Source: a virus
Lineage: Duplodnaviria; Caudoviricetes
Reading direction: 5' to 3' (one strand)
Virus record (IMG/VR): IMGVR_UViG_3300044678_001816
Span: 1 to 31,824 of that record
Length of the DNA stretch: 31,824 nt
Under the pieces are notes generated by a model. It searched no databases. It was not told the origin of the DNA and saw nothing but the letters and a program-made list of their open reading frames with translations. Each line of letters begins with the position of its first letter. The stretch's first letter is position 1. Made by a program: the position numbers and the translations under genes. This document shows, in pieces, positions 7,100 through 7,898 of the stretch.

Positions 7100-7105
7100 T
7101 CTATC

Positions 7106-7219
7106 GTACTATACGTTCTATACGTACTATAGCTATCGGAAGTACTATACGTACTATACGTACTAGGAATAGTACTAATGAGAGTACTATACGTAACCAA
7201 AGTACTATACGTACCATGC
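7106..7219. repeat. degenerate tandem array of the 9-mer GTACTATAC (about 10 units)
   Basis: Units start at 7106, 7115, 7124, 7142, 7151, 7160, 7172, 7184, 7202, 7211. Confidence 0.9.
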
Positions 7220-7228
7220 TAGCGGGAA

Positions 7229-7244
7229 TGGCACGATAAATGCA
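7229..7244 (+). promoter_or_regulatory. sigma54 (RpoN) -24/-12 site TGGCACGATAAATGCA
   Basis: One mismatch to TGGCACG-N4-TTGCW; exact GG-N10-GC spacing. Confidence 0.65.
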
Positions 7245-7247
7245 TGT

Positions 7248-7263
7248 AGCAAGTAAATGGCCA
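7248..7263 (-). promoter_or_regulatory. sigma54 -24/-12 site TGGCCATTTACTTGCT
   Basis: TGGC...TTGCT with GG-N10-GC spacing; faces the 7229 site 3 bp away. Confidence 0.55.
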
Positions 7264-7265
7264 AT

Positions 7266-7287
7266 GATAATGATATATCAATATCAA
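7266..7287. promoter_or_regulatory. Fur-box-like 22-mer, copy 1 (GATAATGATATATCAATATCAA)
   Basis: 19/22 identical to copies at 7496 and 7747; GATAAT-type hexamers; one base longer than the canonical 19-bp Fur box. Confidence 0.5.
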
Positions 7288-7330
7288 TGGACCGTGACGT
7301 GCTATATGCAATCGCATGACCAAAGGCGAT

Positions 7331-7378
7331 GAGAGAGAGAGAGAGAGAGAGAGAGAGAGAGAGAGAGAGAGAGAGAGA
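7331..7378. repeat. (GA)24 microsatellite
   Basis: Read directly; bracketed by inverted repeat TGCAATCGCATG (7307-7318) / CATGGGATTGCA (7383-7394). Confidence 0.95.
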
Positions 7379-7389
7379 GCAGCATGGGA

Positions 7390-7426
7390 TTGCACACAAC
7401 ACAACACAACACAACACAACGTGCAA
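7390..7426. repeat. (ACAAC)5 enclosed by TTGCAC/GTGCAA inverted repeat
   Basis: TTGCAC 7390-7395, five ACAAC 7396-7420, GTGCAA 7421-7426. Confidence 0.9.
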
Positions 7427-7457
7427 ACCACTGAATGCAACTCAGCAAACCTACTTA

Positions 7458-7473
7458 TGTTCCACGTGGAACA
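7458..7473. promoter_or_regulatory. parS: chromosomal-type parS site TGTTCCACGTGGAACA
   Basis: Perfect 16-bp palindrome matching the broadly conserved bacterial ParB/Spo0J site. Confidence 0.88.
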
Positions 7474-7495
7474 CTCAGAAACACGCGATGCTAAC

Positions 7496-7517
7496 GATAA
7501 TGATAACGCAATATCAA
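7496..7517. promoter_or_regulatory. Fur-box-like 22-mer, copy 2 (GATAATGATAACGCAATATCAA)
   Basis: Identical to 7747-7768; imperfect palindrome. Confidence 0.55.
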
Positions 7518-7528
7518 CAACAAAAAGT

Positions 7529-7565
7529 GAACAAACGGCGAATAAAAGGGGAACAAATGGCGAAT
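7529..7565. promoter_or_regulatory. tandem LexA (SOS) boxes of GAAC-N7-GAAC type
   Basis: GAAC-AAACGGC-GAAT-AAAAGGG-GAAC-AAATGGC-GAAT: four half-sites at exact 11-bp period. Confidence 0.6.
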
Positions 7566-7597
7566 CGCCTTCAGTGACGCTAAAATCAATTTTAGTT

Positions 7598-7613
7598 TGC
7601 AATTTAATGGCCA
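7598..7613 (-). promoter_or_regulatory. sigma54 -24/-12 site TGGCCATTAAATTGCA
   Basis: GG-N10-GC spacing; near copy of the 7248-7263 site. Confidence 0.55.
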
Positions 7614-7708
7614 ATCGCGCGTATTGCGTCGAAAGGGGATGCGACAGGGTGAGGTAGCGTAAAACGAGAACGACGACAGGACGGGCCGTTTCCGCTTGAT
7701 TGTGACCA

Positions 7709-7739
7709 TGTGGAAATGTTGTGGAAATGCTGTGAAAAA
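7709..7739. promoter_or_regulatory. three DnaA-box-like 9-mers at 11-bp period
   Basis: TGTGGAAAT (7709), TGTGGAAAT (7720), TGTGAAAAA (7731) versus TGTGNAWAA: 1, 1 and 0 mismatches. Confidence 0.5.
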
Positions 7740-7746
7740 GTACCTT

Positions 7747-7768
7747 GATAATGATAACGCAATATCAA
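7747..7768. promoter_or_regulatory. Fur-box-like 22-mer, copy 3
   Basis: Identical to 7496-7517; extends to TTGATAATG-N6-CAATATCAA palindrome. Confidence 0.55.
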
Positions 7769-7859
7769 TAAGCGGTCTGAGCGATGCGTATATAATAATG
7801 ATGCGCCAGAGACATTAGCAAACGTCATGAGGGTATAAAAACTATTCATATACTTAAAG

Positions 7860-7898
7860 AAAAAAAAACTTGCATCACGCAAGGGATAGTGTTAATCT
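7860..7898 (+). promoter_or_regulatory. early sigma70-type promoter (A-tract, -35 TTGCAT, TGn-TAATCT)
   Basis: TTGCAT 7870-7875, 17-bp spacer, TAATCT 7893-7898 with extended TG; just upstream of the first early gene. Confidence 0.6.

Follow-up and report, generated by a model that had tools for sequence, protein, structure and literature searches.

The Phage Genome and Its Gene Layout

The window is a whole virus record of 31,824 bp from a podovirus-type phage. By Pfam and PHROG annotation, its minus strand encodes capsid, large terminase (TerL), and internal or tail proteins, and its plus strand encodes a helicase, an exonuclease, a Sak4-like protein, polymerase A, and a primase. These two gene sets diverge across positions 6865-7915, and a non-coding tract at 7100-7870 lies inside that junction. 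A second strain, L002, is ~97% identical to the window; its record (G001) is 40,785 bp long and is regarded as a complete circle in the assembly because its two ends overlap. Further scans for close relatives yielded L002 alone. The family comprises 1,084 TerL clusters at E<=1e-40, with contigs of up to about 46 kb and no close cultured member. Among the best matches listed for TerL, polymerase, and capsid, the closest identities are 30% or less.

The sequencing runs that contain the region are lake and freshwater metagenomes. In the host search, the metagenome-assembled genome placements of four loci disagree, and the Fur-type pattern described below occurs in 7 of 61 genomes of one phylum sample, with no clear signal. 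A scan of 49 ORFs from the window and 12 more from the complete relative gave no match to the ParB, LexA, Fur, DnaA, or sigma54 activator families, and ParB_N has none across the whole of G001 or among the window ORFs.

Elsewhere in the window are a pyrimidine-dimer glycosylase (12577-13032), a zinc-finger protein with a sub-threshold Ogr/Delta match that is a candidate late activator (15730-16086), and a polymerase A fused to a uracil-DNA-glycosylase-like domain (18584-21007). A simple repeat in an intergenic stretch (12537-12569) attracts unrelated high-depth contigs. In L002, positions 15862-18593, flanked by the capsid gene and by two SU10-type adaptor genes, hold a weak glycosyltransferase match and a methyltransferase, which possibly serve virion modification.

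The features of the junction and its surroundings are listed below in window coordinates, with the strand where one is assigned; L numbers denote family loci.

3846..6864, minus strand: start of the late operon, small genes (gene layout, annotation)
3846..5351 and 6173..6538, minus strand: large terminase and candidate small terminase, respectively, in the late operon
7087..7100, plus strand: family-conserved G-rich anchor, degenerate here; best profile match within 6 kb upstream of TerL, with a score of only 3.6
7101..7216, plus strand: degenerate 9-bp repeat array adjoining the anchor; 11-mers shared with L081, L108, and L132
7229..7243, plus strand: sigma54-like site, rightward; key dinucleotides unaltered in L002
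7249..7263, minus strand: sigma54-like site, leftward to the late operon; junction with the Fur-type box also present in L080
7265..7286: Fur-type 22-bp box 1; related boxes in L076 and L079/L080/L082
7288..7302, plus strand: weaker sigma54-like site, rightward (geometry scan)
7308..7322, minus strand: weaker sigma54-like site, leftward (geometry scan)
7331..7420: two simple repeats, a dinucleotide x24.5 (7331-7379) and a 5-bp unit x5.4 (7394-7420); length differs between strains
7427..9400: block with ~1.5-2x contig depth, candidate long terminal repeat; edges uncertain, and the left edge may be near 7030
7458..7473: perfect 16-bp parS-type palindrome; 14-bp core intact in L002, identical 16-mer in L132
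7495..7516: Fur-type box 2 (repeat and core scan, strain comparison)
7529..7565, plus strand: four LexA-type half-sites with an 11-bp period; same array, reversed, in L152
7599..7613, minus strand: sigma54-like site, leftward (geometry scan)
7709..7739: three DnaA-like boxes with an 11-bp period, one strict (9-mers at 7709, 7720, and 7731); four-box array in L104
7746..7767: Fur-type box 3, ~100 bp ahead of the first rightward promoter
7856..7898, plus strand: probable sigma70 early promoter with A-tract, found by eye; below scan threshold
8434..8898, plus strand: 154-aa gene with no assigned function; own sigma70-type promoter at 8355-8383 and terminator at 8931-8954
8975..9000: fourth Fur-type box, in a second non-coding block; kept in L002

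Coding Content and Authenticity of the Tract

A sequence-only reading of the window had described about 750 bp without a credible gene, and the strain comparison bears this out. ORFs in 7100-7870 vary in frame, length, and residues between the window and L002, so no conserved gene is present and a hidden gene was rejected; the two tract ORFs that were scanned have no Pfam or PHROG match. A known RNA was likewise rejected (no Rfam match at E<=1 and no tRNA).

The same reading had allowed that the region might be a chimeric assembly or host-derived DNA. Both were rejected: L002 is co-linear, contigs from four studies cover both sides, no plasmid match was found, and annotated phages gave only a 25-bp match (E 0.04). 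The tract is present in a second assembly (L002) and in lake runs from four studies. No single contig spans the simple repeats, and contigs break at the masked stretch 7323-7426.

Host-Type Sites in the Tract

Motif counts in 7100-7870 were compared with 1,000 dinucleotide shuffles. About 25 patterns were tried and P values are uncorrected, so results near P~0.02 are weak when taken alone. The tract contains a parS palindrome, three Fur-type boxes, four LexA-type half-sites, three DnaA-like boxes, and five sigma54-like sites. Shuffles fall clearly short of the tract for four of them: the parS site, the Fur-type core with its three copies, the LexA-type array of 11-bp period, and the sigma54 geometry. 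The expectation that the motifs would outscore shuffles holds for these four, but not for strict DnaA, strict LexA, canonical Fur, or IHF patterns.

The perfect parS palindrome noted earlier is confirmed at 7458-7473, where it occurs once against 0 of 1,000 shuffles, and it is the sole copy in the window. It has the 16-bp palindromic form of chromosomal-type parS and differs by one base from the consensus printed in PMC7022226.

The sigma54 claim also stands: the three GG-N10-GC sites are present, the minimal -24/-12 geometry is observed 8 times in the tract against a mean of 2.4 (P=0.001), and the longer consensus with at most two mismatches is found 3 times (P=0.016).

The Fur-type 10-bp core occurs at 7266, 7496, and 7747, against a shuffle mean of 0.007, with no others in the window. 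The proposed Fur match holds as to these three copies of a 22-bp repeat, but not as to canonical form: within the tract, the canonical 19-bp Fur box has no match at 5 mismatches and one at 6 (P=0.23), the 7-1-7 form has none, and the Fur-type element is one base longer than canonical.

The four LexA-type half-sites form three overlapping pairs with an 11-bp period in the relaxed form (mean 0.16, P=0.001), but the strict pair form is absent from the tract. Acidobacteria may use a direct-repeat LexA motif of this kind. In the accessible text of PMC8565304, this motif (4-bp half-sites with a 7-bp spacer) is that of Alphaproteobacteria. The DnaA-like 9-mers number three against a shuffle mean of 0.05, by a pattern derived from the tract sequence itself. 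The 11-bp period claimed for them is real, but only one of the three is a strict DnaA box (P=0.10), and at one mismatch there are 3 against 1.9 expected (P=0.30).

IHF, CRP, and FNR patterns have no match in the tract; together with other LexA types, they were rejected as tract sites, having no enrichment there or across 33 related clusters. The simple repeats reported earlier are all present, comprising the 9-bp array, the dinucleotide run, and the 5-bp run. The promoter placed at 7870 is plausible by eye but falls below the promoter-scan threshold.

Selection Between Strains

Between the window and L002, motif cores are changed at 2 of 143 positions and the remainder of the tract at 44 of 419 (P=1.6e-4). 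When one divergent patch is dropped, the figures are 2 of 143 and 27 of 358 (P=0.005). This test uses one strain pair, and its core coordinates were taken from the motif scan and fixed after L002 had been viewed. The LexA-type array shows no change at its 16 half-site bases and four changes among its 21 spacer bases; in the parS site, the outermost base is altered and the 14-bp core is not. By this comparison of two sequences, the motif cores are under purifying selection, with substitutions avoiding contact bases.

Orientation and Position of the Sites

Because it sits at a divergent junction of operons, the tract could be an ordinary control region between them. In such a cis-regulatory explanation, leftward sigma54 sites would be late promoters, with the 11-bp DnaA-like trio as their enhancer or as a DnaA operator; Fur and LexA would tune early promoters to iron and DNA damage, and ParB spreading would damp nearby promoters. 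The trio does lie ~100-125 bp upstream of the leftward site at 7599-7613, which is a typical enhancer distance, and some 100 bp separate Fur-type box 3 from the 7870 promoter. Furthermore, the relatives L152 and L229 each have a leftward sigma54-like site directly before the first late gene, and ParB repression of adjacent promoters is reportedly named in the title of one study (PMC5521831).

The remaining arrangement is harder to reconcile with promoter control. As the sequence-only reading had held, the sites are in mixed orientation, with sigma54-like sites facing both directions, and the LexA-type array, parS, and Fur-type boxes 1 and 2 lie 300-600 bp from the first rightward promoter. Site order also varies between relatives, and the sigma54 activator, LexA, Fur, and DnaA families are absent from the 49 window and 12 relative ORFs, although a host activator is possible. 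Cis-regulation is therefore considered rather unlikely. It nevertheless stays close to the reading preferred here, in which the tract would load host proteins onto terminal DNA, and some leftward sites could be late promoters.

The Anchor and a Candidate Genome End

The 131 family loci with sufficient upstream DNA fall into 91 clusters. In 18 of these, an exact G-rich 10-mer is found as a single copy, on one strand, upstream of the late operon. A profile built from the 18 selects 7087-7100, the tract's left edge, as the top window site with a low score. The anchor was assigned at first pass in 35 of the 91 clusters, with three placed by hand (the window, L076, and L132); a second pass yielded 17 further candidates, which were read by eye and left out of the counts. 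AT skew runs negative ahead of the anchor in 24 of 30 clusters and positive behind it in 21 of 29, in a stack that leaves out L181, L210, and L012 (anchor inside a gene) as well as L200 and L157. In many clusters, 14 to a few hundred bases separate the anchor from the nearest shared late gene. Given this position, the anchor may serve in packaging, as an element of a late promoter, or in both roles.

Contig depth, a poor measure, rises across ~7.4-9.4 kb in three of four runs: X1 (14.7 vs about 8), X2 (about 6 vs about 3, with the step appearing near 7030), and X4 (10 vs about 6), with X5 elevated in one bin only. This step would fit a 2-3 kb terminal repeat. Contig ends show no clustering at the anchor, and the IMG/VR end classes are uninformative on termini. 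From the gene layout and the weak depth step, the anchor likely marks where a linear genome has its left end, which probably falls within a terminal repeat of 2-3 kb. The adjoining 9-bp array is likely an end signal of the phage's own.

The second non-coding block (window 8900-9900) contains short C-rich repeats, an AT-rich stretch at ~9640-9730, and a strong sigma70-type promoter at 9871-9899. It is a candidate replication origin and a candidate right edge of the high-depth block.

Tracts in Related Phages

Non-coding tracts of roughly 100-800 bp follow the anchor in relatives and cannot be aligned with that of the window. An exact 11-mer is common to the window tract and the post-anchor tract in 14 of 30 clusters; the DNA ahead of the anchor shares one in 6 of 30, and shuffles give 6.4. 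The 11-mers shared by the tracts lie mostly on motifs. Palindromes number 112 against 61.0 in shuffles (shuffle maximum 74); dyad matches are therefore inflated because the tracts are palindrome-rich in general. Repeats exceed shuffles more than threefold in 22 of 31 tracts, and each lineage has its own repeat unit. L181, L210, and L012, with the anchor inside a gene, are left out of these counts. In most relatives, the anchor is followed only by short repeats particular to the lineage, without a recognisable host site, so host sites are not required family-wide.

The motif survey covers 33 clusters other than the window, with L142 left out as too short. Sigma54-like sites occur in 10 of the 33 (0.8 expected), or in 7 at non-coding positions after removal of one false anchor and the coding matches in L093 and L094; four of the seven are rightward and three leftward. 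The label requires at least five forced changes on a quick TerL tree. Density is 0.82 sites per kb in the first 250 bp after the anchor and 0.04 per kb in structural genes. Fur-type boxes are found as five copies in two clusters, both of the window's clade, and canonical Fur forms are absent over the 33 clusters (2.0 expected).

The parS site recurs in one of the 33 clusters, L132, as the identical 16-mer, and is missing from the sister cluster L076; across the 33, a control with a scrambled parS likewise gives one match, at one mismatch. A LexA-type array of four half-sites is found in one cluster (L152), as is a four-box DnaA array (L104, two of four boxes strict), and L132, L152, and L104 are on distant branches of the quick TerL tree. 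Over the 33 clusters, neither strict DnaA boxes (2 vs 2.5 expected) nor relaxed LexA pairs (7 vs 3.9 expected) are enriched family-wide. The prediction that relatives would show the same motif set in shuffled order is thus borne out for subsets, which recur at the same place in another order, but most relatives have no recognisable host site.

Near its anchor, L152 combines two sigma54-like sites, the LexA-type array, and an 18-bp perfect palindrome. In the first 150 bp after the anchor, L152 and L020 have AT-rich repeats whose spacing, by eye, we take to be CtrA-like. Together, the CtrA-like, LexA-type, and sigma54-like elements of L152 hint at an alphaproteobacterial host. Repeated 12-bp palindromes occur in the first 500 bp after the anchor in L101, L103, L116, L191, and L213; the same stretch holds two or three 14-bp dyads that, by eye, presumably resemble LacI-family operators.

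The prevalence of lineage-specific repeats raises the possibility that the tract consists of the phage's own signals or by-products. It would be a terminal repeat array, expanded through slippage and template switching, that is read by the phage's terminase or replication proteins, and its likeness to host sites would be partly chance. The own repeat unit of every lineage and the family-specific consensus forms of the Fur-type and sigma54-like elements agree with this, and short-repeat arrays also flank the ends of T7. The 9-bp unit resembles a nick site of LUZ24-like phages, as given in the available part of PMC3517423. Chance and slippage account less well for the long palindromes: among 13 perfect palindromes of >=12 bp in 31 tracts, two are the same parS 16-mer on distant branches. 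In addition, the five elements each match a different host protein, and substitutions spare contact bases. Such signals are unlikely to be the whole account; whichever reading is right, the anchor and the 9-bp array are probably of this kind, but the two identical parS palindromes are left without an explanation.

Similar sites also appear in the second non-coding block, 1.2-2.3 kb further in, where the window has its fourth Fur-type box, L081 has three sigma54-like sites, and L093 has a near-parS. Such extra copies, together with repeated sites, free order and orientation, and host-variable subsets, would suit a sponge. Replicated sites, doubled by a terminal repeat, would then titrate host LexA, Fur, DnaA, ParB, and sigma54. 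This would switch on SOS and iron uptake and block replication and segregation in the host. The sponge fits everything but the tight link to the anchor seen in the density of sigma54-like sites. There are only 1-5 sites per protein, however, and lytic cycles are presumably short. It is judged quite unlikely.

A Proposed Loading Platform for Host Proteins

On sequence evidence, the tract is a real, selected, modular array of host-type sites at the likely end of the genome in an uncultured phage family. It is tentatively proposed to be a loading platform for host proteins on terminal DNA, and not a set of switches for one promoter. Host ParB, sigma54 RNA polymerase, a Fur-family protein, LexA, and DnaA would load onto the genome end, which would enter the cell first, and a phage packaging protein would read the 9-bp array. 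ParB clamps and the DnaA array would tie this end to the host origin-handling machinery (ParA, SMC, and membrane). Sigma54 holoenzyme binds tightly without its activator; unactivated holoenzyme, Fur, and LexA would be tight binders that keep the DNA from slipping back once it has entered. The choice of tight binders in each lineage would depend on what is available in its host. Free site order and orientation are expected if the sites act as interchangeable tight binders. Free order, mixed orientation, variable subsets, and the tight anchor link together fit sites valued for binding, not for position relative to a promoter.

Support for the platform comes from the enrichment over shuffles, selection on the cores, recurrence in unalignable tracts, a parS in a phage without ParB, the divergent junction, the depth step in three of four runs, and a precedent in phage T5. 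The parS site is its clearest case, being of chromosomal type in a phage that lacks ParB. Counting against it are the relatives' own repeats in most tracts, the lack of DnaA and LexA enrichment, the presence of parS in only one of 33 clusters, the non-canonical Fur spacing, the sites in the second block, and the unclustered contig ends. The sequence-only reading had proposed that the segment recruits host proteins to the genome end. What remains of that proposal is that the sites beat shuffles, are selected, are not chimeric, and recur in shuffled order; what has weakened it is the lack of recognisable host sites in most relatives, the family-wide DnaA and LexA result, the Fur spacing, and the second-block sites. 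Platform, regulation, sponge, and phage-own functions can coexist.

Comparison With Known Systems

The injection-stop region of T5 (Repeat Region 3 of the left terminal repeat) is non-coding and rich in repeats and palindromes, and the available text of 10.1101/866236 reports eight DnaA boxes in it, identified in silico, with an untested model in which entering DNA is caught by membrane DnaA. The accessible portion of PMC13250531 calls the injection-stop mechanism poorly understood. The tract is also non-coding and repeat-rich, but its terminal repeat is hinted at by contig depth only. T5 is, so far as those sources extend, a 121-kb siphovirus with A1/A2 that uses one host protein and has its eight boxes in a fixed order some 9.5 kb inward of the end, whereas the tract has five site types in free order, starting at the likely end of a 41-kb podovirus-type genome. 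T5's boxes are paired in inverted repeats, and those of the tract are three in tandem, one of them strict; the ORFs at 7870-9379 have no PHROG or Pfam match to suggest A1/A2 pre-early genes. At best, then, the tract would work like the T5 region by analogy, and box number and A1/A2 set it outside that group. This precedent of host boxes in terminal non-coding repeats also qualifies the earlier claim of an undescribed system. A search of the open-access literature, with subscription journals outside its scope, turned up neither a described multi-regulator tract nor a parS site at the end of a lytic phage.

LUZ24-like phages (tf, PaP3, and LUZ24) have two convergent operons and ends at a divergent junction with direct repeats, according to the accessible text of PMC3517423. 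The tract phage shares this operon layout and is similar in genome size. The LUZ24-like repeats are ~186 bp, however, and no host-site tract is described in that part of PMC3517423; no LUZ24-like core homology appears among the best matches listed for TerL, polymerase, and capsid. In the first 100 bp after the anchor, L081, L108, and L217 have a 9-bp unit one base from the putative LUZ24/PaP3 nick site given there, and the window's unit is further off.

The parS palindrome near an array of DnaA-like boxes recalls the chromosomal parS/oriC region, where chromosomal-type ParB loads SMC (PMC7022226, available part). The phage differs in having a single parS, no parAB genes, and one strict DnaA box, and it encodes its own polymerase and primase/helicase.

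The SRL/SRR arrays of T7 resemble the tract in that degenerate short repeats adjoin the terminus. To our knowledge, they contain no host regulator sites.

Genes Beyond the Tract

A gene similar in size to the 154-aa gene follows the tract across the family. Members of the 154-aa family are rightward in the window and L137 and leftward in L076, L080, and L081. A second family of similar size occupies the same place in 33 loci and is weakly linked to the first (E 0.019). The predicted model of the 154-aa protein has a pLDDT of 81.8; its atlas matches score 0.81 or less and are unnamed, and its fold has no PDB match at E<=0.001.

An exact 29-bp duplication (window 7894-7922 and 8076-8104) places a leader and ribosome-binding site around a small ORF that is absent from L002; L002 instead carries an insert of 318 bp near 8290-8318. 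Leader duplication looks to be the route by which the pre-early genes were acquired, as cassettes.

Significance

The proposal bears on two old open questions: how DNA entry is completed in phages without their own RNA polymerase, and what the T5 injection-stop region binds. The tract offers five host sites that can be named, a sign of selection, and natural variants in which single sites are missing or rearranged. The loading of host proteins on a phage end can therefore be examined one site at a time, with DNA assays that do not depend on a phage in culture. If a phage that lacks ParB relies on parS, it would be drawing directly on the host segregation machinery.

In its broadest and more doubtful form, the proposal is that a large uncultured podovirus family uses interchangeable tiles for host DNA-binding proteins to catch, place, and shield its genome on entry. 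Among the tiles would be a chromosomal centromere borrowed from the host (parS without ParB) and sites for unactivated sigma54 holoenzyme, which would act as an anchor. Each host would call for its own tile set, and the set could then serve as a signature of the host. Because the family is large and without a close cultured member, such site sets may help name its hosts.
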